A DNA stretch of 64,000 nt from Cyanophora paradoxa CCMP329 (Eukaryota > Plantae > Glaucophyta): contig QPMI01000040.1 in the NCBI GenBank assembly GCA_004431415.1, positions 1 through 64,000 on the forward strand, written 5' to 3'. Positions 1-55,488 of this stretch are shown piece after piece. The position numbers and the translations under genes are program-made. Numbering within the stretch: position 1 is the stretch's first letter; each line of letters opens with the position of its first letter. The notes beneath the pieces are model-generated. The model was not told the DNA's origin, did no database searches, and worked only from the letters and a program-made list of their open reading frames with translations.

Positions 1-2
1 GA

Positions 3-292
3 AACTTACCGGGAGAAGTTGGGCCCGAGTCCCGAGTCGCCGGCAAACTCCGTGACGTAAATGACGCTGACGTAAATGACGCGACCCTTCAGGTTAATTA
101 ATTAAGCAAGCGCTAGCGCTAGCTAGCTAGATATCGATACCACCTAGCTAGTAGCACTAGGACACTAGGACACTAGGACACCGGGGGGTACCCCCGCCGA
201 GTTCAAGTCTCGAACTTACCGGGAGAAGTTGGGCCCGAGTCCCGAGTCGCCGGCAAACTCCGTGACGTAAATGACGCGGACGTAAATGACGC
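3..292. repeat. Direct repeat, ~80-bp unit at 3-82 and 213-292 (210-bp period), with TGACG motifs
   Basis: AACTTACCGGGAGAAGTTGGGCCCGAGTCCCGAGTCGCCGGCAAACTCCGTGACGTAAATGACGC(T/G)GACGTAAATGACGC occurs twice; the spacer has CACTAGGA x3 and GCTA repeats. Confidence 0.95.
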
Positions 293-360
293 AAATCCCA
301 TTGGAGCTACGTTCGCACACTCCGGACGCCTCCCACAATTTTCCAAGGTACCCAGCAAGC

Positions 361-649
361 ATGGACTTCACCGATTGCGCCAGGTATCAAGCAGGAGCCT
401 GAGGACCTTCTCACCGCCGCCGCCTCGGCGCCCAAGCAGCGCCGCCGCCGCGGGCCCAAGTCCCTCTGCTCCGAGCCCGAGATCCTGGCGGCTCCGGCGC
501 GCGGGCCGGAGACCGTGGACCTGACCCTGGAGGAGCCGGCGCGCGGCCCGCCGCGCCTTCTGATCCTTGCGGCGGCGGCGGCCGCGCTCTACTACGCCGC
601 CCGGCGCCTGGGCCCGCAGCTCTCGGGCCTGGTCCGGAACCTTTTCTAA
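361..649 (+). CDS. Small protein with C-terminal hydrophobic helix (one frameshift needed near the start)
   Basis: ATG 361; reading frame IKQEPEDLL...RLLILAAAAAALYYAARRLGPQLSGLVRNLF*; upstream AATTTTCCAAG motif. Confidence 0.5.
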
Positions 650-660
650 GTCCCTCCTCA

Positions 661-997
661 ATGGAGGCCCTGCAGATCTCATGGCCTTTGCGCTGCCCAT
701 CTTCTTCCTGGTGGGCCTCAGCCGCATGGAGCGCGAGGCGCGCCAGCCGAGCGCGTCGAGCGCGGCCTCACCCCGCAGAGCAGCGCAACCTCACCGAGTG
801 GACTGGCGCTCATGGCCGGCCGCATGCTCGACGGCAACCGGCTCGAGCCGGGCCACCGCCTCAAGCTAGAGGACGGCGGCACGGCCCTCTGGGGACGGCG
901 AGGCCTGGAAGCACGATTCGACGGGCGAGCCGATGAAGCTGCTCGCCTCGGCAACAAGTACTGGCGCGGCGACTCGATGGAGTTCCGGCGCCCGTGA
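661..997 (+). CDS. Small protein with N-terminal hydrophobic segment (frameshifted)
   Basis: MEALQ/LMAFALPIFFLVGLSRMERE.../...GRMLDGNRLEPGHRLKLEDGG...NKYWRGDSMEFRRP*; upstream CTTTTCTAAG. Confidence 0.45.
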
Positions 998-1045
998 TTG
1001 CTAGTGATTTTCTGGTTCCCTCTTCTAACCTTCTACCAGCAAAGA

Positions 1046-1334
1046 ATGCCCGACCCCTCGCCCGACCCCGCCGCAGGGTGCCGAGAGCGCGGGGCAGCTC
1101 GGACGAGTACTCCGAGCTCACGGATCCCGACCCCGACGAGCCCGCGGCGACGCCTTCGCGACGGAGAACGAGCGCTCCCTCATGCGCGTCTACGAGGCGC
1201 TGCGCGAGGCGATCTACTGGGAGGATCCCCGCCTGGGAACCCTGATGAACTTTGCAAAGTTCGCCGAGTTCATGTTCGCTATGACCGTGCCCTTCACCCG
1301 AGTCGTGCTCTGGGATAGGAACAGGAACTGGTAA
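1046..1334 (+). CDS. Small acidic hypothetical viral-type protein (frameshifted)
   Basis: MPDPSPDP...SDEYSELTDPDPDE...EAIYWEDPRLGTLMNFAKFAEFMFAMTVPFTRVVLWDRNRNW* reconstructed across frames. Confidence 0.4.
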
Positions 1335-1456
1335 AGGCATTGAATACACAGTACAGAGCCCTACGAGCTAGAGCTGCTATTCGCCCGAGTCCAGGCGCGC
1401 CTTCTTGGCCTTGGAGCGGCGGAGGCGGGAGACGTACTGCAGGCGCAGGTTGCGCA

Positions 1457-1735
1457 CTAGGAGCTCGCCGGCCGTGGTGCCCGGCAGCCCGGAACCGAGT
1501 CCGTGGGCAGCAGCTGTCCCTCGCGTATCGCCTTGTACGTCTTGCGCTTGTTGAATGCAACCTTCTCCGTATCCTCCGCGACCGGGACTTCCAGCGCCAG
1601 CGTGCGCTTGGCCTTCTTGACGGAGACTGCGTTCGCACGCTCCAGCTTCACTCCGGGCTCCAGGGGGGTAGGGGCGACTGCGTTCGCCACCGGGTTCTCA
1701 GCGAAGGAAACACGGGGGGAAGAGCCGCCGCGCAT
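1457..1735 (-). CDS. Small basic hypothetical protein
   Basis: ORF MRGGSSPRVSFAENPVA...; upstream ATTTTCTAAAG motif; abuts the neighbouring ORF. Confidence 0.45.
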   Translation of the reverse strand: MRGGSSPRVSFAENPVANAVAPTPLEPGVKLERANAVSVKKAKRTLALEVPVAEDTEKVAFNKRKTYKAIREGQLLPTDSVPGCRAPRPASS

Positions 1736-1747
1736 GGTTCGCTCGCT

Positions 1748-1933
1748 TTACCTAGCCTTTAGAAAATAGTCGAGCTGGGCGCTCTGCAGGCGCGCGCCCT
1801 GGTAGGCGCCGCGCAGCTGCCACGCGAGCCAGATCGCAAGGAGCACCGCGGCGACGCCGGCGGCGATCTTGGCGTAGTGCCAGCCCTTCATCGCAAGCTC
1901 CGGCACGGCCGCAACCGCCTGCCCGACCTTCAC
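1748..1933 (-). CDS. Small single-pass membrane protein
   Basis: WHYAKIAAGVAAVLLAIWLAWQLRG hydrophobic helix; may be the frameshifted C-terminus of 1930-2145. Confidence 0.5.
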   Translation of the reverse strand: MKVGQAVAAVPELAMKGWHYAKIAAGVAAVLLAIWLAWQLRGAYQGARLQSAQLDYFLKAR

Positions 1934-2145
1934 GCCGCGGCGCCCGTCCGATCGATTCCCGTCAGCGTGCTGCCGAGTGCGCCCGCGGCCACGTCGGCCC
2001 AGGGAAGCTTGCCGTCGTTCTTTAGGATGAGCTCGTTGTTCTTGCGCTCGATCGTCGTGCTGATCGCCGCGGCCAGGTGAAGCTCGGCGGCGGCTGCGCG
2101 CTCTTCGGTCCGAAGACCTTGGTCAGCACGGCGTCCACCAGCCAT
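1930..2145 (-). CDS. Small hypothetical protein
   Basis: ORF MAGGRRADQGLRTEE...; upstream TTTTTCGAAG motif. Confidence 0.45.
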   Translation of the reverse strand: MAGGRRADQGLRTEERAAAAELHLAAAISTTIERKNNELILKNDGKLPWADVAAGALGSTLTGIDRTGAAA

Positions 2146-2168
2146 CTTTGACCTAGACTTCGAAAAAC

Positions 2169-2648
2169 TATCTAAATGACCAGGCGCGCAGGTACCAGAC
2201 CATCAGGAGCGAGCCGCCCAGCGCCACCAGCAGCGGCAGGTGCCCGTCCACGGCGCGCCGCATGCGGTTGTCGCACAGCTCTGGCAGCTCAGCCGGTTGG
2301 CCTCGTCGAAGTAGGCGCTCACGGCGTAGGGGCGGCGGCCGGCGGGTGCAGCCCCCGGCCCAGGCACGGGTAGGCCTCCGCCTGCCGCCGCGCGGCCAGC
2401 GCCGCCGTCGCCGCGTGCGCCGCCTCCCTCTGCCCCGGCGCGATCGCCACGAGGGGCAGCGCCCCCACGCTCCTGCCCTTGCCCGCCCCCTTGATCGTTT
2501 TCAGCGACGGCGGCGCGGGATCCGCCGCCTTCACCCTGGGCCCCTCCGCCGCCGCCCCGCCCTTAGCCCTCGCCGCCTCGCCGATCTTGCTGCATCGCGA
2601 ATCCGATTTGAACACGGTGCACAGCAGCTTCTCTACCGCGCTCGACAT
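2169..2648 (-). CDS. Hypothetical protein with C-terminal TM helix (frameshifted)
   Basis: MSSAVEKLLCTVFKSDSRC...PYAVSAYFDEANRLSCQ/ELCDNRMRRAVDGHLPLLVALGGSLLMVWYLRAWSFR. Confidence 0.45.
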
Positions 2649-2738
2649 CTTCGAACGTGTAACGAGAATGAAGAAAATTTAAAGGAACGCCAACGGACTC
2701 GGAACTCGGAAAAGGGGAGGGAGAATGAACTTGAAAAG

Positions 2739-2925
2739 TTAGCGCCCGGCGGGGCGCATGCCGGCCGCCGCCTGCGAGGCGCCGCCGGGGGCGTAGAGGG
2801 ACTTGGCGGCGTAGCGAAGCCCACGCCTATGACCGCCGAGGCCGTGGGGGTGCCGCCGAGGAGCCAGGTGAGGTCGCGGCCAGCGCTCCTAGCGAGTAGT
2901 GGGCAGGATAAGCTTCGAAGGCCAT
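2739..2925 (-). CDS. Small hydrophobic protein (frameshifted)
   Basis: MAFEAYPAHYSLGA.../LTWLLGGTPTASAVIGVG.../YAAKSLYAPGG; upstream ATTTTTCTCAA. Confidence 0.35.
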
Positions 2926-2972
2926 CGCGGGACCGAATTGAGGGAGGGTTGAGAAAAATACCGCCTCGGGCC

Positions 2973-4555
2973 TCAGTGGTGCAGGTGCCGGAAGCGCGCG
3001 TTGTCCTCGCCTCCTCGCGCGCCGCCTGCTCCTCCGCCGCGTCGATCTCCGCCCGCGAGGCCTCCCGCGCCGCGGCCGACGCGTAGTCCTTGAGCACGGG
3101 CACGCGCCGGTAGCTGTAGCCGAGGCCCTTCGCCAGCCCCGCCGACTCCGCTCGAACGCCCGCCAGCGCTCCGAGGCCTCCGCCCCGGCGATCTGGCCGC
3201 GCGGAAGCCGGAGTCCAGCTCGGCGCGGAAGGCGATGGTGGCCTGCAGGCGCTGGCCAGAGGGCCTGGCGCCGCTCCTCCGCCTCGCGCGCCTGGCGCGC
3301 CGCCAGCGCCCGCCGCTCGGCCTCCTGCTGGGCCCCGAAGCCTGGATCGCGGTGAGGACGGCGCCGGGGCCGGGGAGGGGCTGGGGCCGTCGGCGCTCGC
3401 GGAGGAGGCCGAGCTCCCGTAGCCGCTCGGGCCCGCGCCGCCGTTCGTCGGGGTACCCTGCCTTGGATCAGGAGGGGGGCGGGGGAGGGTACGGGAGGGA
3501 AGGCGGGGGGTACGCGGGCCGGACCTGGCGCGGCAGCATCTCGTCGATGCGCTGCTGGCCGGGGCGCTGCTGGGGGCCGTGGCGGGGGGCTGGGCGGGAG
3601 GAAGGCCGGCGCCGAGTTGCGGGTGCGCTTGCCCTTGCCCTTGGTGTGGGGCTTGACGAGGAAGGGCCCGACGTCGGCCACCGGGTCCTTGAACTGGCGA
3701 CGGGATCGCGATCGCCTCCAGCGCCGGCTGGCTCTCGCCGAGGAGAGCGGGGCCTTGGGACGATGCCGCGGATGTAGGTCTGCCAGACGCCGCCGAGCTT
3801 GTAGGAGTAGGGGCGGCACGAGGAGCCGAAGCCGGCGAGGGTCTCGTCCAGCCGGCCGTTCTCGATGTCAGCGCCGACGGCGGCGGAGGTGTCGGGGCCC
3901 TCCGTGCGCGCGATGTACTCGACGATGCCCGCGACGCTCGTCATCCAGCCCTCCGTCTCCGAGCCGACGAGGAAGGTGGTGGGGTCGACGACGCAGTGGG
4001 TGATGATGAAGCGGGTGAGGGGGCAGGAGGCCGTCTCCTGCCAGAAGGCGAGGCGCTTCTCCCGCAGCCACACCGGCTCGAAGGCCTGGATGCAGGAGGC
4101 CTGGCGGCCACCTGCGGCGCGGGCGACGTTAGCGCGTACGACGTCGGGACGGGCGGGGAAGGTGCGCGGCTTCGAATCCAGCGGCTCCCCGCGAAGCTGC
4201 CTGCGGCCCAGTGAGCGTGCTGCGAGCGGGAGGTGGAGGATTGGCGGGCGGGCCTGCGTCCAGCGCTGAAACGTAGCTCCACTGATGCTATCCGCGATGC
4301 GCGTAGCCGCGACTGGCTGCGGACAAGGAGGGCTTAGCTAGGACAAGAACGGGTGTGGGGCGCGGGCTGGAGGCGCGGGAGGCGAGCCGGAGCCGCCGAA
4401 TCGATGCGCGGGCTTGAGAACGAGATCTAGAAGCGTGCGCAAGTCGCCGCGAACGTCGGCTCGAGTTGCGGAAGGCGCGGCGGCCAATCTCGGCACCTGC
4501 TCAGAGACCAAATGTCAGCGGACGCGGGCGAATCGAGCGCGAGGTTGCGGACATG
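2973..4555 (-). CDS. Hypothetical protein with a D5-primase/helicase C-terminal winged-helix-like domain; apparent short introns in the 5' part
   Basis: CPLTRFIITHCVVDP...SVAGIVEYIART...DETLAGFG...GGVWQTYIRGI resembles the D5 C-terminal wHTH pattern; CTAAC/CTAAG branch-like sites and CAG acceptors at ~4110-4500; start uncertain. Confidence 0.35.
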
Positions 4556-5245
4556 TTCTAGGTGCTAAATGCAAGGGATAGAGCGGCAAGAGAGCGAGCT
4601 GGCACCTGCGGGATGCGGCGGAGTGCTCCGGCTCGGGCGCCATCGAGCTTTCGAAGGTCCGCGGCCGGCGCGAGCGACCCTGCGCGTGGCGGCGTGAGTG
4701 CGGCGTCGAGAGAGCTTTCCAGCGCCCAAAATCTGAGGTCCGGAGCTAGCCGTGGTGCGGAGAAAGAGGTTGCGAAGTGAGGCGCACCTCCGAATCGAAA
4801 GGAGCGAGGCGGCGGCTCTCCGGGCTGAGCGGAATGCAAGCTAGTGCCTCTGGCAAGTGCTGCAAGGAGCGCTGGGCCGGGCGCTGCGAGATGCGCTGCC
4901 CGGGCGCTTTTTTTCGGGTTGGGGTACTGTGTTTTGAGTCGAAACACGTGGAGCAACCGCGTGAGCCCAAAACTTTCTGAGCTTAGGAGCAAAGGCGGTC
5001 GAGCGCTCGGCCGCGCAAGCTAGCTCCGGCGCGCTCTGCCTTCTCTCTACACGTGTCGCATTCACGTGCGCTCAAAACTTTCTAAGCTTCGGTCAAGCAA
5101 GGGCTAGCGCTTCCGAAGTTCTACGCGCGCGCCTCCCGTCCGCCGGGCCGACGGTCTGCGCGTCACATCGTCCGCTGCGCCAAGAAGGAGAGATCAAGAC
5201 GGTGTCAACCGGGTCTAGTTGAGCGCTTAAGGTCGGACCAAAGCC

Positions 5246-5380
5246 TGTCCCGACCCTCCCAGATCTTTAAATTAATATCTCAGAAGTCGAGACAGCCGCT
5301 GAGCAGTCCGGATCCAGACGGACCAGAGCCTGTCCCGACCCTCCCAGATCTTTAAATTAATATCTCAGAAGGTCGAGACA
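5246..5380 (+). repeat. Two copies of the 50-bp imperfect palindrome (5246-5294, 5331-5380), putative origin/initiator sites
   Basis: TGTCCCGACCCTCCCAGATCTTTAAATTAATATCTCAGAAGGTCGAGACA; GC-rich arms, AT-rich core; the first copy lacks one G. Confidence 0.9.
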
Positions 5381-5470
5381 GCAGTCCAGACGTCGACTAT
5401 AGCTAGCCAACAGACGTTGACTAGCCTAGTAGATCTAGAATTTTCCAAGCCTAGCTATAGAGAGACGACC

Positions 5471-8400
5471 ATGGCAACCGGACGCGTGTCTCTCGACGTC
5501 GACGCCTTCCTGGCCCGTATGCCGGGCCCGGGTACAGCAGATAGATCTGAGCGAGCAGGAGTGCAGCTTTTTCGTTCGATTCCTCTCGTCGAAGTCCAGA
5601 AGGCCTGCAGCCCGACCCTGGGGACGGCTTTCTGCGTCTTCCACCCGCCCTGCATCACCCCAGCCACTTCTCGGGTGCCGAGGATGAGACGAGCACCGCG
5701 GCAGCCTGCGCCTTTGCAACCAAGTTCGGAGGCTTCACTTTCTCTCGCCCCTTGGATAATGGATTCAAGGCTGCCTACGTCCTACAGAGCCCGGAGGCTT
5801 GCGATCTCATGGCATGGTTCTTTGGAGCTCGAGCGGCCTGGAGCTCGGTGTGGATGGCACGGGGGCTACGTTCTGCGGGGCCGGCGCCCGGGCCGCGAGC
5901 GGAGCTCCTCCCCACTCCATCCAGAAGCTCGGCGCCCCGCGCTAAGCCCATCCCGGAGCCGGGCGCTCTCCTGGATTCGAGCCCAAGCCTGCCGGCCTTG
6001 GAGCGGCTCCTGGACCGCCTGCGCAAGAACAAGGCGGTGAGGGACGAGATCTGGAAGGCGGGGCAGAGCTGCGCGCGGACCTTGGCCTGCACGACGCCCG
6101 CCGCGTTCAGCACCTTGGAGTCGAGCCCGACGGGTCCATCACCCTCGTCCTGGGCGGGAGTCAGCCGGGGCGCCGGCGGCTCGAATCTCCATCCAGGCGC
6201 ACGGTATTGAAGTCGAGCTCGAGGGGGAGGGACCGGAGGGGAGTCGGGCAGCGTGGCACAGACCCGCTATGTGACCGATCCCTCGCAGCCTGTCGCCTTC
6301 GACATTGCCCTCCCCTCCTCCTGATCGCGCTCGAGTCGACGGGCCTGGAGGCTTGCGTCAATGCAGTGGATGAACGCCACCTCTCGTGCAAGATCCTTAC
6401 CTCCGCATTCGGGGCGCTGGAGCAGAACCCGAGATCCGCTCAGCCGCAGGTCGACGTCATCTGCTCGGGACTCAACACGGGAAGACGCAGGCGCTGATCG
6501 ATGCGTACCTGGACCGGCCCTCGCAGGCGCTGGCGAGTGATCCTCGTGACTTGCCGCCGGCCTTCTCCCGCGACCTCAAGCGTCGCATTGATGCTGCGGA
6601 GTTGTCAAAGGACGCCGTGCTTTACATGGACATCAAGAAGCCACCGGAGAGCTCAAAGGGATCGCATGGCAAGTGGGGCTTCCGCCATGAGGAGTGCAGG
6701 TGCGTCGTCATCACATGGACTCGCTGCACAAGGTGCTCGAGGACTGGGAGGGCTGGTCGACGGCGCCGCTACTGGTCGTGCTGGACGAGCTCTCCTCCCT
6801 CACGAAGCACCTCACCTCGAGCGGCACCTCGAGCCCACCGGCCTGCACCTAGGTATGCGGTCAGTGCCTCGAAACGCGCGCTGCGTGGGCCTATGGCGCG
6901 GCGTGATGAAGGCATCGCGCATCGTGGCGATGGACGGCTTCGTTCGTCGGTCGATCTCGCGTACCTGGCAGAGTCGGCGCAGGAGGTCGGGGCGCGCCTG
7001 GGGCTCCTGTACAACTCGCATCGCACCTGCGACTGGAAGATGCGCGTGTCAGACAGCCCGGCGCACGTCGAGGCGGACATCATGGTGCAGTGCCGACCTG
7101 GGCGCTCGCGGGCCATGATCATCGCGGAGACGCCGGCCAAGGCGATCGAGCTGCAGGAGAAGATTGCGAAGCAGGCGCTGGAGCAGCTCAGCCTGGGCGG
7201 CGCTCAGTACGTGACTCAGCTCGAGGCAGGGCCCGAGGACGGCAGCGGCGCACCGTTCACGATCGGGCTCATCGTTGGGCAGGCCAAGGAGAAGAGCGTG
7301 CGCTTCACGAACGAGGGCCCAGTGCGCATCGTGTCGATCGATGTGTCTGAGGAGGGCGCGTACAAGGCCTGCGACGTGCTCATCGCAACTTCCGCGCTCG
7401 GGCAGGCGTGGACTTTTCGGACGCGCACTTTGACAAGGTCTACGGCGTGTTCCAGGCGGAGCCCGCGCAGCTGGAGGCGGACGACATCGTGCAGCTGCTG
7501 TTTCGAGTCAGAAGGCTGCGCAAACGCAGCACGCCCGACGGGGAGCACCTGCTCGTCGCCGTGCGCAAGAACCGGACGCCCTCGGTTGCGGTCGGCGCGG
7601 CGGCTGCGCACTGGCGTGAGAGCGACGACGACGAGAGCTCGGACGACATGCAGCGCTACCTGGACCTGAAGGCTAGCCACCGCGGGAGCCGCCGCGCCGG
7701 CATGCCCACTCGGCGCCTCGCAGTGGCAGCGCGCCTGCGGCTGATGTCGACCTGCGCGCTGATGAACGTGCAAGTCACGGAGGATCAAAACCCGAGCGGA
7801 CCGAAGCAGGAGAAGGAGCAGCGGCTGCGCGAGATCAGGAGCGTGCTGGAGGCGGGCGCGCTGGAGCCCGTCGATCTGTGGAGCACGGTGCTGGCCTGGA
7901 GGCAGTCCCGCGAGTCTCTCGCTAAGCTGGACATCGAGAAGGTTGCTTCGCTTGCTCGCACGTCGATCGCCGCGTTCCTGGCCAAGGATCCGAGCGAGCT
8001 GACCGAAGGAGACGTCGCCTGGATGTGGGATTCGTTCTACTCCATCCCGCTCACTGCCGTGGTCACGCTGGTGCTGAAGCATGGCGCGGACGTTGCCGAG
8101 ATCGTGCCTACTGCTGAGCGCCTCAAGGTATCGAAGGTCGTCGCGCTGTTCAAGAAACTCTTCGGCTGGCGGGGTATGGAAAGCTCGCGGGGCGTGCTCT
8201 GTGGTCGGACGAAGCCTACGCGGCCCTGGCGTCGCCGGAGGGTCGGGAGGCGTACGCGGCTCTGCAGAGTCTGGACGAGCGCGCGCCCCGCTTCGATGCA
8301 GCGGACGGTGAGAAGAAGCGGCTCTCGCAGCAGTCTTGGCAAGTCATCAAGTACCTGCTGGAGAAGTACCTCGGAGTGAGACGCGCTTTCTCCGACGCGG

Positions 8401-8573
8401 ACGGAGGGCAAATGGGCAGCCGAAAGCGACGCTACATCACGTGGGAGGAAGACATGCTCGACGACGCAGTAGAGCGCCAGGCTAAGCAGGCAAGGGCAGG
8501 CATGGCGCCAAGCTTCCCAGAGGTTTACAACGTTTTCTCCGACTGCTATGCTCTCATTCACAGGCGCGTGTGA
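5471..8573 (+). CDS. Herpesvirus UL9 / replication origin-binding protein-like SF2 helicase (multiple frameshifts; pseudogene or sequencing indels)
   Basis: Motifs in UL9 order across frames: VICSGLNTGKT (Walker A), ITWDSLHKV, LVVLDELSSL (Walker B), ASRIVAMDG, DVLIATSALG-GVDFSDAHFDKVYG, IVQLLFRVRRL; intronless. Confidence 0.8.
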
Positions 8574-8674
8574 TTGTCGGATGTCACAGTGTGGACTTCG
8601 CGAACGGGATGCGCGTGCCAGTGTGTAAATACGAACGTGCGAATTCAAGTGACGTCATGCATATGATCAATGAA

Positions 8675-8724
8675 TGTCTCGACCTTTTGAGATATTAATT
8701 TAAAGATCTGGGAGGGTCGGGACA
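8675..8724 (-). repeat. Inverted copy of the 50-bp palindromic element
   Basis: 49/50 identical to the reverse complement of 5331-5380; extra half-site TGTCCCGACC at 8765. Confidence 0.95.
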
Positions 8725-9003
8725 TTGCGAGGGCGGACGAGAGTGAGGGCATGCACTCTCTATGTGTCCCGACCTTTTCTGAACAACTCATGATTGCCGT
8801 ATCATCGATCTGCATTTACTCACTTCGTTCTCTGTCGCTTGCACATGCGCGGTGTGGGATTACTAATTAGATCTAGTCTCCCTAGCCCTCTGCGGCCGCC
8901 TTCCTGCCCCCTGCAAAGAGCAGCTCAACCAAATCCTGTGGGGTCTGATTCATTGCAGACTCGCCTTCCCCGCCTGGGCCTGAGCTACACCAAGCTACGG
9001 TGA

Positions 9004-9534
9004 GTCCGACCAAGAGACGTGTCCGGACCCTCCCTACTTTCTTTATAGATTATTGGAAAGGTCCGGACACTAGAGGAGGGAGGGCGTACATAAGTAGTCT
9101 GACCAAGAGACGTGTCCCGACCCTCCCAGATCTTTAAATTAATATCTGAGAGGGTCGAGACACTAGAGGAGGGCGTACATAAGTAGTCTGACCAAGAGAC
9201 GTGTCCCGACCCTCCCAGATCTTTAAATTAATATCTGAGAGGGTCGAGACACTAGAGGAGGGCGTACATAAGTAGTCTGACCAAGAGACGTGTCCCGACC
9301 CTCCCAGATCTTTAAATTAATATCTGAGAGGGTCGGGACACTAGAGGAGGGCGTACATAAGTAGTCTGACCAAGAGACGTGTCCCGACCCTCCCAGATCT
9401 TTAAATTAATATCTGAGAGGGTCGAGACACTAGAGGAGGGCGTACATAAGTAGTCTGACCAAGAGACGTGTCCCGACCCTCCCAGATCTTTAAATTAATA
9501 TCTGAGAGGGTCGGGACACTAGAGGAGGGCGTAC
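9004..9534 (+). repeat. Tandem array: 5 near-identical 89-bp units plus one degenerate unit, each carrying the 50-bp AT-cored palindrome
   Basis: Palindromes start at 9113, 9202, 9291, 9380, 9469 (period 89); degenerate 50-bp copy at 9020-9069; identical linkers CTAGAGGAGGGCGTACATAAGTAGTCTGACCAAGAGACG. Confidence 0.97.
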
Positions 9535-10172
9535 GACTTAAACTCGCGCAGCGCCGCCTGCTCCTCGCTGAGGTTCTCTGACTTCATTCGATCGCTGTAG
9601 GGCTCGGGCGGAGTTCCAGCCTTCACGTGCATCCAAAATAGATGTAAGCACCGCCGCATGAGCTCGATGTACCTCTCGTCCCGTCTGACGTACCACGTTT
9701 GCACGCGCAGAGGCGTGAAACAGAAAAGTTCGGCCCAGTCGCGGCCCGTGATGTCCAGAAGTCCTTGCAGTTGAGGCATATAATAGGTAGGAACTCTATC
9801 ATAAAGTTCGCCCTTGTACGGGCATTTCACCTCTAAAATTCTATCATTTCCTATAAGTCCGTCGGGACTACCGGCGAGGAACGGCATTTCTTTATGTTCG
9901 TGCAGTCCAGTATGTTTAATGTCAACGTTATCGTTCAGTGCCTTGTAGATAGAGACCGCGAGGGGCTCATAGTCATGCCCATAGGTTAGGGCAGGGTTGT
10001 CAAAGTTGTTTTCCTCCGCTATCCCGCTTAGCTCCGCCACAGGCGGGCCCTGGATTTCCAGGGTTTATGCCGCACGCAGCCGCAAAATTAGATGCAGTTA
10101 GTTTTTCACGGCGCGCCGCGTGCCACGCTGCGCTCCCTGTTGCAAAGTCTCGCAATTTGTATCGGTATGCAT
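9519..10172 (-). CDS. YqaJ-like viral recombinase / lambda-exonuclease family nuclease (frameshifts in the 5' third)
   Basis: QG(S)AAWHAARREKLTASNFAAACGINPW...ALTYGHDYEPLA...FLAGSPDGLI...ILEVKCPY...YYMPQLQGLLDITGRDWAELF: PD-(D/E)xK YqaJ motifs. Confidence 0.9.
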
Positions 10173-10222
10173 AGCGTAGCCTCGCAGTAGCGTTTAGAAT
10201 TTCTTGATGTGTGCAATTGCAA

Positions 10223-10884
10223 ATGTCGGATGCAGAGGAAGCGCCCAGGGACGTGATCGCACAGTTCATAGATCAGGTCAAGGACCTTAGACGCTGGGTG
10301 GTAGAGCAGGCCTCGCGACCGAATCGACAGCGCCAACCCTGGCCGGTGCTAGAGCTGGCCCGGGCAGGGTGGCTAGACACGCATTACAACTCTGGCGGGG
10401 CCCTTTACGTTCGGAGCCACGACGAGGGCAGGATTATCGACGAGTTCAAGCGCATCTGGTTCGCCCTGGGCTCCAAGCTCAGCATACTCTCGACCCTCCC
10501 GGACCACATTCGCATGCAAATCCTCGAGTGGTACGCGAAGGCAAGGGACTCGCAATGGGACGACGTAAATTTGCGCGACCTCTCGCGCTTGCGCTCGGCT
10601 GTGACGGCGTATGTCACAAACTATGATTATCACGTCAAAAAGCCCCAATTCGAAGTTGAGCCAATTCCGATGAATCTGGTACCCCTGGGATGGGAAGAGT
10701 ACCCCGAGTACTCGTGGAACAGGGGCCTCAACCCCCGCGCCAGGCCCTGCCAGCCCGCCCGCCCACCGATAAACGCCCCGCCCCGCGTGACGTCAGACGG
10801 GACATACGCGAATGGGAGGAGTGGAGCAACGACCCGAAGAACTGGCTACCCGGGAGGCGGAGATGCGGAAGCGCGCGAGGCTGA
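10223..10884 (+). CDS. Hypothetical protein, paralog A of a tandem pair (frameshift near the C-terminus)
   Basis: Intronless ORF MSDAEEAPRDVIAQF...; shares motifs with 10951-11687. Confidence 0.6.
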
Positions 10885-10950
10885 TGCCCGGCGACAGGTA
10901 CCCCGACCGCGAGTAGGGGTACAGGTATAAATTCTCACCGAGCCGCGAGC

Positions 10951-11687
10951 ATGGCGCGAACACGCGAGTCCGACGTGCTGTACAACAACGGCGACCTGGA
11001 CGGGAGATTCGACAGCGGAACGTGGACTTGGAGGATGCGAACGCAGTGCTGGAGGGGAGGCGCACGTCCTCAGGGGCGGCTCGCCGGCGGAGAACTTCAT
11101 GGAGCGCGTGCTCTACCTTGTGCGCTGGATTAGAGACGAATTCCACGACGAGCGAGAGCTCCCGGACAGGGAGATGATCAGGGCCGCGGGCTTGATGGGT
11201 ATGACAGAGAACCCGAGATCGTACCTGAGGCGCGAACGCAGGGATCTGAACGGCGATTGGGCCGACCTGCAAGCGCTGTGGACGGCCTTTGCGAACCGCA
11301 AGAGCCAGATCCTTGCCCTGCCCGCGCAGGTACAGCAGCGTATCATTGATTTCGTAGCCCCCTGGCGCGACGAGTCCCTCCAGCAGCCATTCATGCAACC
11401 ACGCTTCCTCTCCGGGCTCAGGAGCGCGTTCTTCCACTTGGCCGTGAGCAGCGACCGGTATTTCACACCGCAGAGGATCGTTCACGGCGAATTCGGCATA
11501 CCCCCGAGTGGCTGAATTTTGCCACCGTACCCCTTCCCCACCCCGCCTCGAAGGCCCCCCCTCCCCTACCCCCGAGCAGCGTGAGTCACTCAAGCGTCAG
11601 AGGGAGGTACGCGAATGGATGGACGACACCAGCCACTGGGTACAGGGCGAGGCCGAATTACGCAAGTTCGGAAGGTTCGGGCAGTAA
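10951..11687 (+). CDS. Hypothetical protein, paralog B of a tandem pair (frameshifted)
   Basis: MARTRESDVLYNNG...LQALWTAFANRKSQILALPAQVQQRIIDFVAPWRD...LSGLRSAF...REWMDDTSHWVQG. Confidence 0.6.
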
Positions 11688-12037
11688 CAGCGGGGGGTAC
11701 AGCATTCAGTTAGAGCCTGAGCATCGTTAGAGGCCGGGAGGCCCCCCGAGGGGTACACCGGCTGTTACTCCCCGCGTCGGTTAGTGCTAGCCCCCCTGTT
11801 AGTGCAGCGTGTACCTGATCGCAATATAACACCCAAACCTCCGCGACGCGTGACTCATGCAACCTCCGAGGGTTAACAATGCATTGACAGCGAAGGGGCA
11901 AGCTCGAGAGCTCAACGCTTCACAAAGGCCCACGTATATAGCTAGAGGCTACCGGTAGCGGGAGCCTAGCGCCGCGGCGCTAGTACCCGCGCTACTACCG
12001 CCGTGACTGCGCCGTGACGCCGCCGTCTACCGGTACT

Positions 12038-12559
12038 CAGTGATGAGTCTCTAATTTATAATACAAAATAATACTCATTTATATAATTATTATAATAAAC
12101 ATTACTGTAATAGTCCCAGGGCGGCAGTTATCGATAACAATAAAATAACCGGGGGGATACAGGCTACAAACACTCTAAACGCTGCGTAATTCATGCTTAG
12201 CAACGCCTACGTCAAAAAGAAACGATGCGCAGCAAGCTATAAGAGTCGTACAGCATCTTTGGCGTTCCGGCAGGTCGCCCGCCCGCCCGCCCAGCCACGG
12301 GGGTACAGTGGGTACGGCGCCTCCCTCTGGTGAAACCACGGGAATTTAGATGTCTGCATTCTGAAATCCACAATATAATAGCTTAGGCGATGTTCTTATC
12401 CCTTTTCTAACGTTTTCAAGCTGTTCTGTGAGGTGCGGGGGTGCCCTCTCTATGGAGCGTTATTTATAATACGCTAATCGTTATAATAATATTATATAAC
12501 GTTAGTGTAATATTATAATAAAAGAGCGTATTTTGGTCTAATCTGTAATCCCATCACTG
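12038..12559. mobile_element. Non-autonomous hAT-like MITE
   Basis: Ends CAGTGATG...CATCACTG; degenerate AT-rich subterminal inverted repeats; exact 8-bp TSD CCGGTACT at 12030-12037 and 12560-12567. Confidence 0.85.
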
Positions 12560-13514
12560 CCGGTACTACCGGTACTCGGAATTCGCTAGCGCTAGCGCTC
12601 GCGATCGGAATTCGAACTCGGAACTTTGAGCTCGAGTCGGAAGTTCGGAAAGCTGAGCTCGGCCCCTCCGAAAAGGTCGCGTCACAGGCTCACAGCAGCT
12701 GAGCTAACGTCACTCGCGTGTTCCACTCATCTTGAAGATCTCTTGATTCTCTTCCCTTGAATCACGCCGTTATCAAAGTAGTATCATAGTATGATGGCAT
12801 CATCACGGGCCATTCACGGCGCCCTTAATGCCCTTATGATGGGCCTTATGGCCCTTATCATGGCCCTTAGGATGCCCTTATCGCTGCAATATATTAATGA
12901 GAACAAAATAATAAAATTAGTGTCGAATTAAATTTGCTCATTCATCAAAATTAACGTGGCTCCATTTCTGCTAAACATGTGTTCACGTGCAAGTGAGCGA
13001 GCCGTGTGAATATGTTGACGCATATCGACGTTTCGACTTCGGAGATGATCGACGTTTCGGAATGAAAATTGTTAATTACGCACTATTACTTGTACCCCTG
13101 CTGGCTCCTTGTCAGAGTCCGGATCCTTGATCGAAAGCTTGCTTGCTTGCACGCGCGGCCGCCGGGCGCGCCGCGGCCCCACTGCTTGTCTGGAAGATTC
13201 CCGAAAGCTGAAGTCTCTGCGCCTCTTCACTGCAGCTGCTTCCAGTCGGGTCAAGCTGCTCGCCCTTCGAAGATCTAGATCTAGAACGACGAATTGGTGG
13301 GCGCCCTGCACCTGCAGCTGGATCGGTGCGAGCGCGCGACGTTGACGGCTCTGGGTCTTCTTGAAGCTCGGAAACATCGGCTCCCCCACAAAAACGGTGC
13401 TTTCTGTGCTACTGCTCCTCGTGTGCTGCCCGTAAGCTTGCAATTGGTGCCAGACGCATTGAGCATGCCAAACCCAGGACTCGGCCTCTCTCGATCTGGG
13501 ATCGGCGTCCGCGG

Positions 13515-16500
13515 ATGAGCAAAGAGCGCCGGAAGGCGGCGGCGACGACGTCGGCGGCTGCGAGCCCGCCGTGCTCAGAGAGGGGATCGCCGGCGCTGGA
13601 CCCTGATCATGAGCCGTCACCCGTTCAAAGCCCAGGCCATGCATATGGCCGCAAAGAGTCTCTCGCTCCGGTGAGCTCCCCATGCCGCCTTCTCGACCAT
13701 CGACGAGCCACGACGCGGCGCCGTTCGCCGTCTGCGCGTTCCCATGGCCACTTCATGGTCATCTGACCGGTACCGCTCGGCGGACCCGGCAGCTCGCGCT
13801 CCTCCAGCTCCGGGGCATGGGGAAGGGCGAGCTCTGGACGTGCCCCGCGCTGGACAACGCCCACAACCTTGTGAAAGGGGACAACCTTTACAGTGCGCGC
13901 CCTTAGAACCGTACACCTTTTGCCTCTAAACGCTGTTCATCGCTCACTGAGTCAACCCATATTAGTCGTTAATGTTTGTATCTCTGATCACGCTCCCGCC
14001 CGCTCAACTTCTGCGCTCCCATCGCAGTTGTCCTCCCGCGCGCCATCGAACTGGACCCGGATTCGCGGCTTCAGATTCACGTCTCGGGGCTCGATGGGTA
14101 CCCCTGCGAGGCCCGCGTACCCCTCCTCGATGAGCAGTGCGTACCCATCCCTGGCGAAGCCCCTGCGCCCTACCCCCGCGGCTCGTGCACCCGCGCCGCG
14201 GCCGGGGCCCGCCGCCGACCCGGGCCCGGGCCCGGACCGCTTCGCAGCGGGAAATGCGTGGAGCGCATGCCCATCGCGGATCGCCTCCAGTGGTCCCTCT
14301 GCCTCCTCGAGGTGCGTCACCGTACCCCTGCCCGCGGCATCAGGATACCGATTCGCGATCGCCGCGGCGCCCCGCCGGATTCGAACCCGTAAATCTCGCA
14401 GGGGGACGATCTGGACCCCAAATCGGGCGTGAAGAAGAGCCTGAGGCGGGAGATCGGCCCGTTGGAGGCCGACGGGCACGCCGTCCTCGTCCTCTCCATC
14501 CCCTCCTCCATCCTCGACGACTCGTCCCTTCGTGACGCGGTGCGCGCACGCGTGCACGCGTACCCCGCCTGAGCTTCTTCCCCTCCCCTCCCCCCACGCC
14601 CTCCTTCCTTTCTTTCCTTCTTTCGTTTGTTCGTTAGTTCTCGATCTCAAGCTTGGTCTTATGCGCGGCCAGGTTTGCGTTGTCACGTTCCGGGACTGCG
14701 CCGGCCCCGTCGCCCGGTTCGCGGCGCGGTTCTGCTCACGCGAGCTCAAGAACGGCCCTTCCGGTGCGCATGCGCTCGCGCGGTTAATTAAATTCCAAAG
14801 AAACCGTACCCTTCTAGGTCCTTTCATTCCAGTGTAAGTAAACATAATGCATTGATCGCAGGGGAGCTGGTGAAGGAGGCAGAGCTGAACAGGCTTAAGA
14901 AGCACATCCTGAAGAAGCGCCAAGCCCACAGAGGTGCCCCAGACCTAAAGTACTTTAGATATCGATCTTCAAATATTGATAAATATGTATCCCGATCCCC
15001 AGCCTTTAGTTTCTGCTCTAGATCTGCGCGGATTGCGCATGCTGCAATATATACGTATTAATATTTATCGCGATCGCGCCCAACAGGGATTGCGCACCGA
15101 GCCACGTCGGGCTCGCGAACGGCGGTGGCGGAGGCGGAGGCGGCTCCCGCGTGCTCCGCGCCCCGCCCCATGCCGCCCTTCAGGCGGCTCAGCTTGGCCA
15201 GCGCCGGCGCCGGCGTCAGTGGCCATGGGGGGATCAGTCCGCGGTCGGTCCCGAGCCACGCCCACGTGCAGGGGCCGCCCGAGCTCCGCAAACGTAAGCA
15301 CTGGCTCACATAAGCTTTAAATTTGAGCTTATAGCTTATAATTAAGATATGAAGCAATGGCTCACACTCTTCATGTACTTGCAATTGTGCGCGCAGGGTC
15401 CTTGTCGACCCCCGACCTGGACGCCACGGGATCGCCCCGCGATTGCAGGCCGATGTGCATCTCGCCCCGAGCCCGGCCCGTCGCCATCTCTCCCCGGCCC
15501 GCGCCGTCGCCGCCGGTGCTGCGGCCGTCGCCGCCGGTGCTGCGGCCGTCGCCGCCGGCGCCGGCGTGCACGTGCCCGCCGCCGCCGCCGCCGCGGCCCC
15601 GGCCTCGGCCCCGGAGCTGCACCAGCTGCAAAGGCCGGCCGCCGTGCACCCGATGCAAGCGCATATGCATCTGGGCATGGCACCATGGCCAGGCCCCGTC
15701 CCGGCCGCCCCAGCGCTCGGGCACCCCTTCACGGCCGGCGCTGGCCACGGCCATGGTGAGCGTACCACCCGCCGCCGCCGCCGCCATTTCTTTCTGATCC
15801 TTTTTCGCAGACCGGGTGAAGCTCGAACCGCCGGCCCAGGCATGTTTTGAATTCGCCGCGACCGGACCGCGGCTGGGGATTCATGATCACGTGGCCCATG
15901 CCCATGGCCACGTGCACCCCATGGCCAACACCTGTACATGTCCGCCGGCACCGGTACCCCAACTTCTGGCCCACGCGTACGGCCATGGCCACCATCAGAC
16001 GGCCACCGGTACCCCGCACCCGCCCGGCCCGCCGGCGCCGGCGCCGGCGACGGCGACGGCGACGGCGCCTCCAGCCGATCGCGACTGCTGGTCGGCCCAC
16101 GGCCAAGGCCAGCGGCCCGCCCCCCGGGTCATATGCAGCCTCAGGTGAGCTAGCTTTCAGACTTCTTTGTTGTAACCCGTGGGCCTCCGGCCGCGGCCCG
16201 CCCGCCCCGCGCCGCCGACCGCCGGCGCCGGCGCCGGCGCCGGCAGCCTCTGGGGGACGCCTCCTGATGAGCGGCCGCAGGCACCGGCCACGGTACCGGT
16301 ACCGGTGCCCCCGCAATCCTTCGGCTCAAACCTGGACGCGCGGGCCGCGATCTCGAGCTCCGCTGGCCCGCCCCCGCCTCCGCCAGCGGGCACGGTCCCC
16401 GCGGCCGGCCCTTTCTTCCTCCCGCGCGTCGGATTCCCCCCCGCGGCCGGCGCCGCCCCGGGCCCGCCCCGGGGCGCATGCGCACCCCAGTGCGGGGTAC

Positions 16501-17355: not shown

Positions 17356-18020
17356 CGGCCCCGGGAGTCCGCCTGCACGCTGGGCGGCTGGCCCAAGGCC
17401 AGAAGCCTGGCGGCCGCAACGTTAACGGCGGGGGCCAAGCTCCCGCCGGCGCGCGCGGCCGCGGCGCCCCCCAAATTAATGTAGGATACAAAAAATTAAA
17501 GCGCGTTTTATACTTATCTTCCTCGTTTCGATCGTGCGCATTCGTTCGGTTCTCATGCATTCGAATTTTAAACTATAGCTAGCTATAAAAGCAGGCCAGG
17601 CCTCCGGATCCTCATGATCACTTCGAATCTTCGTATCTATAGTTCGACGTTTGCAGCATAGATAATTGCATTGGTGTAGACGTCGACGCCGCGAGACGGC
17701 ACGTGCACGCTTCGAAATTCTGGAAATTGGCTTTTAAATCATGAAATTCTGATTCGTACGGATACGTACGCGCGCGTGCTGAGAGCCGCCGTGCTCTCGA
17801 GCTCTAGATCTACTTCGTCATTCGATCTTCGAACCAGTATACGTAGATTCTGCGACTATCATATGCATAGAATTTTGCGTTTGTACACATACATTATACA
17901 TGTATCGTATTTCTCGTTAGTACTGTAGCACTGTGTAAGTATGATTGCCGTCGTACGTTGTAGCGTTTTGTCACGCAGTTTGAGACTTCTTGGAGTTAAC
18001 ATTGGCCTGCCGATTCTTAA

Positions 18021-18283
18021 GTGACAGGCACCTAACGGTTCAAGGCTTCGAGCTTCTGACTATCCCACGGATCTCTAGACGGGCAGTAAAAGAGACTACG
18101 CACACGGACGGGCTCCGTGGTGGTCAGAGTAGCCTGCAGCTGGACCCCGTTATAACCGGCCCCCGGGCCCTGCTGAACAACAGCAGCGGCGCCCTCGGGC
18201 AGAACCGGCGTGGTATAATTACAACCGTGAGAGTCGAGATCCGTGGGATAGTCAGAAGCCTTGAACCGTTAGGTGCCTGTCAC
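18021..18283. mobile_element. MITE with ~48-bp TIRs flanked by TTAA
   Basis: Left GTGACAGGCACCTAACGGTTCAAGGCTTC(gagcttc)TGACTATCCCACGGATCTC is the reverse complement of 18236-18283; TTAA at 18017-18020 and 18284-18287. Confidence 0.9.
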
Positions 18284-19784
18284 TTAAGACGATCGATGAC
18301 CGTCATTCCGTCATCAAATTCTGTAATCGCTACCGTTTATTAAAATATTTTGCATTAGGCTAGCTAGCACTTTCAAGTTTCAAGGCTTGTATACGTAATT
18401 ACAAGTTTACAGAATTTTCGCCGCCTAAACTCCATTCGCGATTTCAATGCACCATGTATACGTAGCTATAGAGTTAATTAGGACTGTCCTGCATCGTGTT
18501 GATTATAACGTAACGTGTTCTTCGATCATGATCATGATCATGAGTCGCCTGACGTCGACTCATCATGATCAGTGAGGCCAGGGCTACCGCAGCCTGGCAG
18601 AGTCGGCGCAGCCTTAAGCTCACTGCTCATGATCATGATCAGCGGCTGTCATGCTCAGTTTCATATGCATCGAATGCCCGGCGGCCATCATGGCATGGCC
18701 ATCGATATCGGTTACGTGATCGCATGCATATGATCATGAAGAGTTCATGTTTAACGGTTCTTGTTTCTTGAGGACATGAAAAAAACTCTTGAACTGGCAC
18801 CCGGCCCGTGACCCGGCTACTCGGCGGCTAGCGCTGCGCTGAGTTTGGCAGCGGATCTCGGAGATCTAGATTCTCGGTGCCAGTTGATGGCAAACTTTGC
18901 CAGCCAGTGCTCAATCGAAGCCAGTCTGCCACAAATGTAACACAATGCAAATTGAGTCGATCAGGTGATGCGGAGTGGGGCCACTGGCACAGTCTGGCAG
19001 GAGATTTTGTGCGGACTGGCAGTCTGGCAGAATCTGACAGTTGACTCTGGCATGCATTGGCATTGGCTGCCGGGCAGTGCCGGCGCCTGCCGCAAGTTCA
19101 CGCACTGTTGATCCCATATATAGTCAAGCATTATAATTACGGAAATTAGGGACAATTACCCTGAACTTCGGAATTCGGTGCTTTTCTGCCACTCAGAAGG
19201 GGCCTTCAGGGGGTACGTGCAGTCCAACTCAGGGGAGTCCGGCGCTCAGTCCCGCGCGCATGCGCAAGTTCAGCTCAACTTCGAATATTAATTCAGCAGC
19301 CGCTGAGCGCAAGGGAATTCGAAGCAGGCAGGCCGCAGGCTGCACAGCTGCACAGCCATATGCATGCTGCATGAGCGCCTTGCATGAGCGGGGGCGGATG
19401 GTCTGAAGCAGCCTCAAGCGCTCGGTGAGCTTCAAACGTGAGACGAGGAGCGGCCGTGAAGCTGGGCCTTCGCAGGCTGAGCAGCACTAGGCCAACTTGC
19501 CGCCCCACAGCCCGGCCTTCAGCATCCTACAGCGCTGAGTCGCTGACCATGAGCCGCTAAGCTTCTGCTGAGGTAGAATCAGATCAGCATACGTGTCCCT
19601 GGGCTGCAGCTGGCGACCGACGTACACAGGCACCGGTTCGACGGATCGTGGCCGCAGCCGGTGCACATGCGCCGCCCCTGCTTGCTCAGCCGTTCCCTGG
19701 TGTGTTCTCGCACTTCTGAAGGGGTGCGGTTGCGCAGCTTCCGACGCCGAGCCTGCGCGGCGTTCCCCCAGGCCCGAACTGATC

Positions 19785-41600: not shown

Positions 41601-42771
41601 GTGCGGCTTCGCTTCCCTTGCCTCGGGCCTGCCGGGACCCGGCAGCGCCCCGGGGAGCGCCCGGGACCGCCCCCCGCCAGAGCCCCGCCTGGGCGCCGTC
41701 GACGGGTCTGGGAGCGCGCCCGGCAGCGGCCGGCAGTCGCCCCGGGGGGGTATCGCCAACTTTATGACCCCCCCGAGCACCACCGGAGGCGCCCTGGAAG
41801 CCCGTATGCAGCGGCACCCCTCCAACACCGATTTGACCCTACCCCCCGCCTCGCTGTCGCGGAACACGGCGTCCCCCACGAACCTCACGCGCGCCCGCCT
41901 CTCCGTGGGGGGTACCAGCGCCGCGGCCCTGGCGGCGCAGGTCCTCGCCTCGAGCGCGGCGGCGGCGGCCGCCGGCGTCATACTCTCCTCCAACGGGCCG
42001 GAGGAGGGCTCCGACCCGGGCTCCTCCGGCGCGGCTCAGTCCTTCCGCCGGAGAACCTCCATTGCCGGAATCGAACTCCCGCTCCCCGCCAACGAGCCGG
42101 CCGCGTGTGACGAGTCGGACGACTCGGTGGTCGACTTCAAGGAGGCCATCCGGGCCCTTGGCGCGTACCCCCCAATCCTTGCCCGGTACCCCCCTTCCTT
42201 CCGCTGACCGCCCGCAGGCGGCTCCGAGGAGCTCTTCCGCTCCCTGCTGGGCAAGTTCAGCCACTCGAGTGCGCCCCCCCCCCCCCCCCCCCCCCCCCGC
42301 CCCGGCCAGCGCTGTACCCCCGCCGGGCCGCGCCTCACGGCGGCGGCGGCGGCGGCGCAGGCCTCGAGACGGTGAACAGCATCGAGCTGGCGCTCATCTC
42401 GCGCCAGTGGTCCGAGGTCCGCCGCCTCGCCCACTCCCTCAAAGGTCCGCCCCCGCCCCTACCCCCCCCCTACCCCCTCTCACGCGCTTGTACCCCCGCA
42501 GGAAGCGCGTCCTACGTGGGCGCCCACCTGCTGGCCGCCTCGTCCCTCCAGCTACAGCACGCGGTCGACGCCGATTCCCTCGAGACGGTTCGTGCCTCGC
42601 CTCGCCTCGCCTCAAAACGAAGCGCGTTGCACTTTACTCTTCCGTTATTATTTATTGACCAACGCTGCGCCCCGGCCCCCTTGGCAGGTCCGACCCCTTG
42701 CCAAGGTCGTCCGGCTCGAGTACGAGCGGGTCCGGCACTGGATCACATCGTACCTGGCGCCACGCTCCTAA
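35687..42771 (+). CDS. Phytochrome hybrid histidine kinase: PAS-GAF-PHY-PAS-HisKA-HATPase-REC-HPt
   Basis: IQTFGVLF (PAS2); TGFARVMLYRF, YPATDVP, LRGVSPCHIRYLRNMGV (GAF with bilin Cys); HPRISF (PHY tongue); SHEMRTPLNG, NLCSNAVKYT, DTGIGI, GGTGLGL; AEDN, LMDCEMP, TKP; LAHSLKGSASYVGA (HPt). Start approximate. Confidence 0.93.

Positions 42772-47521: not shown

Positions 47522-55488
<7,967 letters not shown>

Follow-up and report, generated by a model that had tools for sequence, protein, structure and literature searches.

How is a segment of an algal nuclear genome to be explained that holds, within 5 kb, a helicase resembling the origin-binding protein (OBP) of herpesviruses, a YqaJ-family exonuclease, and nine copies of one imperfect palindrome? 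The segment occupies positions 5246..10172 of a 64,000-nucleotide stretch of the Cyanophora paradoxa CCMP329 genome (assembly GCA_004431415.1, contig QPMI01000040.1, positions 1 to 64,000, forward strand), referred to here as ‘the window’. An earlier, sequence-only reading took it to be a self-contained, herpes-like replication and recombination system of an endogenous virus or mobile element. We consider it somewhat better than an even bet that the segment is a module for starting replication, carried by a virus-like element integrated in many copies, and that its palindromes are, as predicted, sites for the helicase; the carrier is probably polinton-like or mriyavirus-like. The module was placed correctly, but it is only part of a larger multi-copy element that spans window position 1 to ~12,030 and is open at the left: its right edge lies near 12,030 and its left edge falls outside the window. 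The approximately 33-fold copy number, apparent helicase subfamily swapping, apparent tandem reiterations and a likely spliced antisense RNA were overlooked at that stage. The algal host was recognized correctly: the remainder of the window carries intron-rich phytochrome/histidine-kinase, PP2C and RPB2 genes, and the helicase relatives found (in searches giving 4 and 14, plus cluster members) are all Cyanophora paradoxa gene models.

The helicase gene (5471..8573, plus strand) is intronless and encodes a UL9/OBP-like superfamily 2 (SF2) protein of about 1,030 aa, from an ATG at 5471 to a stop at 8573, with motifs I, II, III, V and VI at 6471, 6784, 6927, 7385 and 7498. Profile evidence upholds this assignment. 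The 20-bit cut-off of PF02399 (Herpes_ori_bp) is reached in three of 14 gene models from other copies (P0001, 29.7; P0003, 22.5; P0010, 21.7); P0012 (18.1) and P0036 (17.2) fall below it, and the remaining nine give no match, which in most cases is due to a missing motif I region. In one profile search of the PDB, UL9 of herpes simplex virus (HSV) was the sole match at E<=1; in another it came first, at E 0.004, and the alignment includes motifs I, Ia, V and VI. SF2 motifs I, Ia, II, III, V and VI all occur in UL9 form (motif III in what we take to be the UL9-type form) and are kept across the helicase subfamilies described below. A C-terminal fragment falls in an atlas cluster in which 14% of members carry PF02399, a lead only. 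Structural realignment places the HSV-1 UL9–oriS complexes (PDB 9hgj, 9hgi) first and second (Z 14.2, 336 residues aligned; the next match has Z 12.8), and the viral fold matches are largely origin-binding or primase-helicase proteins from giant viruses and from herpesviruses, with noise from RNA viruses among them. The best viral matches of the full-length model are a Clandestinovirus PrimPol/helicase and giant-virus OBPs. On the strength of profile, realignment and viral matches, the helicase belongs to the wide UL9/R8/pF1055L family. No helicase locus was found in viral contigs or in phages, and a search among longer proteins with a fragment half of which is out of frame gave no match.

Within the window, the helicase reading frame is broken over several frames, and 13 window fragments matched no helicase family in Pfam; unbroken models of other copies do match. 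Four public runs of Cyanophora paradoxa, two of DNA and two probably of RNA, were mapped as contigs on window positions 1-14,000. In both DNA runs, single contigs at full depth over 5353-6815 show 16 gaps relative to the window and not one substitution (12 of the 109 indels recorded are set out individually). Unbroken models in other copies include P0001, over motifs I-IV (325 aa), and P0013, over the last 548 aa. Because of these gap-only contigs and unbroken models, the window frameshifts are best read as long-read assembly errors, and the genes are probably intact.

The nine palindromes, each ~50 bp, are all located within 5246-9518, and no further copy occurs in the remaining ~52 kb of the window. 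Two stand upstream of the helicase: the first at 5246..5294 (plus; one base shorter in the window) and the second at 5331..5380 (plus), 90 bp before the ATG. The third (8675..8724, minus) is inverted and lies ~100 bp past the helicase stop; a lone half-site follows at 8765. The other six form an array (9003..9534, plus) that repeats an 89-bp unit 5.9 times, each unit having one palindrome: the first (9020..9069) has the same arms and a divergent AT-rich core, and the others start at 9113, 9202, 9291, 9380 and 9469. Matches to the arm pattern number 16 in the window, all within 5246-9518, against a mean of 0.90 and a maximum of 4 in 100 shuffles. In the five copies examined, the arms pair at 14-18 of 19 positions and the 12-bp core is 83-92% AT. 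The GC-rich arms and AT-rich core of the original description thus stand, as does its likeness to oriS: two inverted boxes flank an AT-rich spacer within ~50 bp. In the divergent copy at 9020-9069 the arms are kept while the core changes. Exact matches in viral contigs number 0. Loose contig ends at 9014 and 9509 indicate that other copies of the element hold palindrome variants with different cores; these are candidate sites of other helicase subfamilies.

The arrangement around the helicase is repetitive in both senses. Palindromes 2 and 3 are complementary at 49 of 50 positions and form inverted repeats around the gene, and 5232-5380 aligns with two units of the array for 155 bp at 81-82%, which places direct repeats around it as well. 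The last five codons and stop of YqaJ, which abut the last palindrome, share 16 identical bases with the array spacer; the array therefore likely grew by tandem duplication of the palindrome at the YqaJ stop. Identification of the palindromes as miniature inverted-repeat transposable elements (MITEs) was rejected: there is no target-site duplication. That the palindrome is instead a dispersed host repeat, present here by chance among dead gene remnants, is scarcely credible and largely refuted. The many frameshifts of the window would suit such decay, but the gap-only contigs and the unbroken models of 325 and 548 aa elsewhere speak for intact genes, and the confinement of all copies to 5246-9518 ties the palindrome to the element. 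Depth agrees: the excess at the upstream pair corresponds, roughly, to ~114 and 205 genome copies, under the ~300 expected at nine per element.

A different role for the palindromes is conceivable from their position. Giant viruses have hairpins between genes that serve transcription termination and polyadenylation, and seven of the nine copies here lie in the interval between the stop codons of the two convergent genes, one of them right at the stop of YqaJ. The palindromes also fold well as single strands (z -1.9 to -7.6 in the six copies folded). We nonetheless give little credit to a function as terminators: two copies stand upstream of the helicase, between divergent genes, the exact arm sequence is kept where a hairpin alone would not need it, and the likely antisense RNA described below spans the helicase up to palindrome 3.

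The nuclease (9519..10172, minus strand, convergent with the helicase) is a member of the YqaJ/lambda-exonuclease family, as first proposed: PF09588 matches at E 5.8e-15 in the window and at 99.6 bits for a full model, and the PD-(D/E)xK catalytic residues are present. Its frame is broken near 10036, a point at which each of the four runs has a one-base difference from the window. The GC content of YqaJ (9522-10172) is 53.5%, compared with 65.7% for the helicase, and its depth is ~3.5-4 times that of the element. One ENA protein is 64% identical to it. Among 99 YqaJ-bearing viral and metagenome loci, whose best segments are 27-44% identical, neither the helicase profile nor the element DNA found a match. 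YqaJ was likely acquired separately, and is likely common to the helicase subfamilies.

Read depth and gene order extend the picture from the window to the genome. Long element contigs have depths of ~3,200 and 214-224 in the two DNA runs, and the flank from 12,532 has 95 and 6.5, giving ratios of 33.9 and 32.8, or ~33-fold, a summed contig depth rather than a strict copy number. Helicase models occur in 31 separate loci, a count independent of depth. Single-copy depth begins after a small insertion (12038..12559) that adjoins the element's right edge. Read depth and extrachromosomal forms had been named at the outset as things to check; the steady depth ratio gives no sign of extrachromosomal replication. 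Helicase and nuclease are paired genome-wide. Among the matches listed, a YqaJ model lies directly beside a helicase model in 10 of 14 cases (null mean 0.06, maximum 2), and for an open reading frame (ORF) of the element's left arm, 8 of 13 models have a helicase or YqaJ no more than six genes away (null mean 0.24), adjacency being judged from serial accession numbers with up to four accessions per sequence. The left-arm ORF 2648-2170 is likewise found near helicase and YqaJ models on other contigs.

The helicases of these copies fall into four subfamilies, three of them 73, 67 and 47% identical to the window type. Three subfamilies sit among neighbours that are 97-99% identical. A 65%-identical helicase (accession 25121), for example, is flanked on one side by a YqaJ of 97% identity (25120) and on the other by a left-arm ORF (25122) whose sequence is identical to that of 9492, found near a window-type helicase; for a 72%-identical helicase, the left-arm ORF four genes off is 99% identical. 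Divergent helicases among near-identical neighbours argue for cassette exchange between the repeat clusters, and so the sequences point to swapping of helicase cassettes between element copies. This bears on a further explanation, that the palindromes serve recombination or regulation (as recombinase targets, or as enhancers like baculovirus homologous regions, hr) and that the helicase is a plain replicative or recombination enzyme of the giant-virus primase-helicase kind. Arms of 19 bp, an asymmetric 12-bp core, inverted and direct copies around the gene, and the swapping itself all fit recombination sites, and the viral matches of the full-length model are of the kind expected. Baculovirus hr repeats are tandem units with one imperfect palindrome each, and the 89-bp array resembles them. 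We think this explanation unlikely all the same: 1-12,030 shows no recombinase, the helicase and YqaJ are the only genes with palindromes clustered around them, and no catalytic motif of an N-terminal primase is visible by eye, as in orthoherpesvirus initiators. Origin and recombination roles of the palindromes are, moreover, compatible.

Rearranged copies carry the theme further. One contig has the order helicase–YqaJ–helicase (g5896-g5898), and elsewhere two helicase models lie two genes apart. The RNA-contig junctions 10756>7222 and 8780>7316 match the chimeric models P0034 and P0018 of one contig, and this match indicates that the palindrome-bearing segment has been reiterated in tandem in some copies. 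Such reiteration would be expected if the segment favours its own copying. Defective-interfering amplicons of HSV consist of head-to-tail reiterations of a palindrome-bearing segment; these and the baculovirus hr share tandem palindrome units and reiteration with the present element, but not sequence, and the function here is putative. Two further observations concern these copies. In model P0011 (tig00000983_g5896), ORF 2145-1748 (minus) is fused upstream of a helicase in the same direction, and a YqaJ and a second helicase lie next to it; the contig holds rearranged copies, or the gene model is an artefact. The region 7152-8412 has 1.7 times the depth of the helicase 5' half in run X10, and about equal depth in X1; cultures may thus differ in their tandem reiterations.

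Several findings weigh against an initiation module, and they include the limits just given for depth and adjacency, and the lack of any extrachromosomal sign. Predicted models of two helicase paralogues are poor (mean predicted local distance difference test score 45.5 and 41.9), and in a Foldseek search of the PDB, UL9 ranks 13th among generic SF2 helicases. In the realignment, model residues 90-827 lie on chain residues 34-818, reaching the C-terminal domain, at a root-mean-square deviation of 14.4; from such models, the C-terminal domain appears to match that of UL9 weakly, and the DNA-binding residues of UL9 could not be mapped onto the Cyanophora protein. A basic motif near the C-terminus, in a helical domain, is kept in all four subfamilies and may serve in DNA binding or as a nuclear signal. 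Nor was a capsid, a packaging ATPase, an integrase or a terminal repeat found in the visible part of the element. No polymerase, active primase, single-strand DNA-binding protein (SSB), capsid or integrase is seen in 1-12,030, and the module is thus, in the part visible, not self-contained, contrary to what was first claimed.

Absences of this sort raise the question of whether the element is a virus at all, or a capsid-less, transposon-like selfish replicon, comparable to transpovirons or Helitrons, that copies itself with helicase and nuclease. No structural gene is identified in 12 kb, the copies are near-identical, and replicase-only elements have been proposed for the C. paradoxa genome (10.64898/2026.10.13.758929). 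We regard it as quite unlikely, for no transposase, HUH protein or integrase was found in the visible part of the element either. The left arm (1..4337) holds about seven ORFs without family, three with a hydrophobic stretch at the end; small ORFs with such ends would be typical of virion-type genes, and capsid genes may lie at the left end, since that end is outside the window. Searches of the left-arm ORFs found no double jelly-roll capsid or A32-like ATPase in these frameshifted frames of an element that continues beyond base 1, and the scanned ORFs of the incompletely visible element gave no HK97 capsid, terminase, DNA polymerase or SSB. In Pfam (13 and 83 window ORFs) and PHROGs (24), YqaJ was the only match in the element, besides two weak ones at chance level. 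ORF 4337-3471 was considered as a packaging ATPase and set aside: the lead, to TraG, is at chance level, and no Walker A motif is seen by eye. No long inverted match occurs within the window, where only the right end of the element is visible. The capsid-less explanation is about the carrier, and does not conflict with origin function.

How close the module stands to known systems depends on the part considered. The layout of oriS is box, AT spacer, box, and UL9 binds it through its C-terminal domain (PMC13483431). HSV-1 shares with the present locus the SF2 motif pattern and PF02399, a target-like palindrome in which two inverted boxes enclose an AT-rich spacer, a lambda-Exo superfamily exonuclease close to the helicase, and an initiator in which no active primase is seen. 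It differs in that the two proteins are 14% identical in the structural alignment, and the Cyanophora helicase has an extra N-terminal region of ~330 aa, nine palindromes including a tandem array, an algal host, and binding that is predicted; no herpes capsid, polymerase or ICP8 is seen in the visible element. Nothing except the helicase points to herpesviruses, and even that sign is not specific. UL9-like helicases also occur in mimiviruses (R8), African swine fever virus (ASFV; protein pF1055L), mriyaviruses and SmDNAV; the N-terminal primase is active in mimivirus, ASFV, some mriyaviruses and SmDNAV, and not in orthoherpesviruses (10.1101/2024.02.29.582850 and 10.64898/2026.08.29.747986). 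The label ‘herpes-like’, taken as a sign of descent, is consequently not supported, and most of the viral matches are giant-virus proteins.

These archaeo-eukaryotic primase (AEP)–SF2 helicases (R8, pF1055L, and those of some mriyaviruses, ostreid herpesvirus 1 and SmDNAV) resemble the Cyanophora protein in length, ~1,000 aa, in helicase family, in their protist or algal virus setting, and in the frequent presence of YqaJ, and they supply many of the viral fold matches. They differ in having intact AEP motifs, none of which is seen here; paired palindromic origins are not mentioned for them in the portions of those sources covered. The N-terminal ~330 aa of the Cyanophora helicase is possibly a decayed primase-like region: it has no Pfam primase match and, by eye, no DxD motif, a candidate His varies, and in model P0036 residues 42-120 form a low-confidence beta-alpha-beta-beta-alpha-beta region. 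Loss of a primase would be our reading of this weak model and the missing motif.

The carrier is best compared with polinton-like viruses (PLVs) and Polisuviricotina. The C. paradoxa genome is reported to hold 366 capsid genes in two clusters, of 272 and 94 genes (PMC10120064 supplement), giant-virus insertions (PMC12344493) and adintovirus-like contigs (PMC8502044). Primase–SF2 replicases are known from PLVs (PMC12220804), and a PF02399 column is present in a PLV gene table. A preprint (10.64898/2026.10.13.758929) describes repeat-bracketed replicases beside endonucleases in polisuviruses, among them one C. paradoxa element, and its figure 6, which includes palindromes and small arrays, possibly depicts a related element. 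Likenesses are multi-copy integration in protists, replicase swapping, repeats around the replicase, a nuclease beside it, and the same host genome; many integrated copies with modular replicase exchange, a trait of PLVs and mriyaviruses, are present here. Differences are that capsid, ATPase, integrase and terminal inverted repeats are not seen in the window, that neither a polymerase nor an active primase seems to be part of the replicase, and that antisense splicing is not described for these viruses in the parts covered. No description of the element, its palindromes or its antisense RNA was found in literature that excluded preprint supplements and figures, and the consulted parts of 10.64898/2026.06.19.733378 and PMC4889955 hold nothing specific on it. 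By its sequence, the element would be a variant of known virus-like elements, and herpes-style origin recognition in an alga is predicted.

Is the module expressed? Runs X15 and X17 were taken as RNA because of their splice joints, which are absent from the DNA runs. At least eight joints fall in the helicase region (5338..8717, minus strand; introns ~48-116 nt): five have CT..AC ends in both runs and studies, one more occurs in both, and two in one run; 32 further joints were recorded beyond these eight. Seven of the eight correspond to GT..AG introns on the minus strand, as does the eighth when the intervening 19 letters are assigned; for each joint, the chance is 1.6%. The intron ends (GTCCGC, GTGCGC, GTACGC ... 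CAG) resemble, by eye, those of host RPB2 introns. The strand is deduced from splice signals, the contigs giving neither strand nor level. The segments removed take in helicase motifs I, III and V, as well as VI if a loose end is a ninth intron; they are therefore not sense introns of a working gene. CT..AC sense introns were rejected as well, their reverse complements being ordinary host-type GT..AG introns. Going by these signals, the helicase-region RNA is likely a host-spliced antisense transcript. Its introns spare motif II and make up less than a fifth of the region; noticed after the fact, this may be chance. RNA depth is zero at 7542 in both runs, which marks an uncovered part and is not proof against a sense mRNA. 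A protein-coding antisense RNA was considered and dismissed, the longest ORF from a Met being 123 aa, a length blurred by window indels. For C. paradoxa, silencing of viral genes by methylation (PMC12344493), and bidirectional ORFs and overlapping transcripts (PMC6704402), are reported. Given such transcription, the antisense RNA may be read-through processed by the host spliceosome and not a regulator.

If the palindromes are indeed helicase sites, the module could work as follows. A helicase dimer would bind the TGTC-nn-GACC arms, using its C-terminal domain in the way that HSV UL9 binds boxes I and II, and ATP-driven opening would start in the AT-rich core. DNA synthesis would fall to a polymerase and primase of the host or a helper virus, as the visible part encodes neither. 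YqaJ would resect ends, allowing recombination to restart forks, and recombination at the direct-repeat clusters flanking the helicase would exchange or reiterate the cassette. In culture the element would be quiescent, the main helicase-region RNA being the host-spliced antisense transcript. Tentatively, and with more doubt than confidence, we would go further and see here a herpes-type strategy of initiator and palindromic origin used by nuclear algal elements, with a primase-less UL9-like protein that recognizes oriS-like palindromes of its own, initiator specificities exchanged between copies in the manner of plasmid replicons, and a gene kept off by host-spliced antisense RNA until induction. 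UL9-like helicases are widespread among giant viruses and their smaller relatives, yet in the literature covered, origin and binding are described for herpesviruses only. With a candidate initiator and nine candidate sites within 5 kb, a culturable alga and four subfamilies, origin recognition outside herpesviruses becomes directly testable, as does protein–site co-evolution. If true, the scheme would offer a concrete mechanism for replicase swapping in PLVs, and the locus an example of a viral gene without introns lying under an antisense RNA that has many.

The remaining features lie around the module. Downstream of YqaJ, two paralogous ORFs of unknown function (10223..11515, plus) are 24% identical over 127 aa (E 1e-4). 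Beyond the right edge, the insertion at 12038..12559, AT-rich, 522 bp long and distinct from the element, is bounded by short inverted ends, carries an 8-bp direct repeat at either side, and is presumably a hAT-type MITE; its depth is ~5-9 times that of the flank. About 50 bp inside the right edge, an 18-bp GC-rich palindrome (11967-11984) is reminiscent of a terminal hairpin; the 91 nt around it fold no better than shuffles (z -1.5). Rfam gave no match in 1-13,000. At the left, window 1-300 contains an 80-bp direct repeat at 210-bp spacing, TGACGT motifs and short palindromes, and its depth is 1.8-4 times the element base level; it is perhaps a repeat common to more elements. In the host DNA, a perfect 35-bp inverted repeat with arms 205 bp apart (18015-18289) is probably a small MITE. 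The phytochrome region (35942-42902) has PAS, PHY and HisKA domains and a weak Hpt match, and is followed by PP2C (44449) and RPB2 (48174-55490), several introns of which begin, by eye, with GC.

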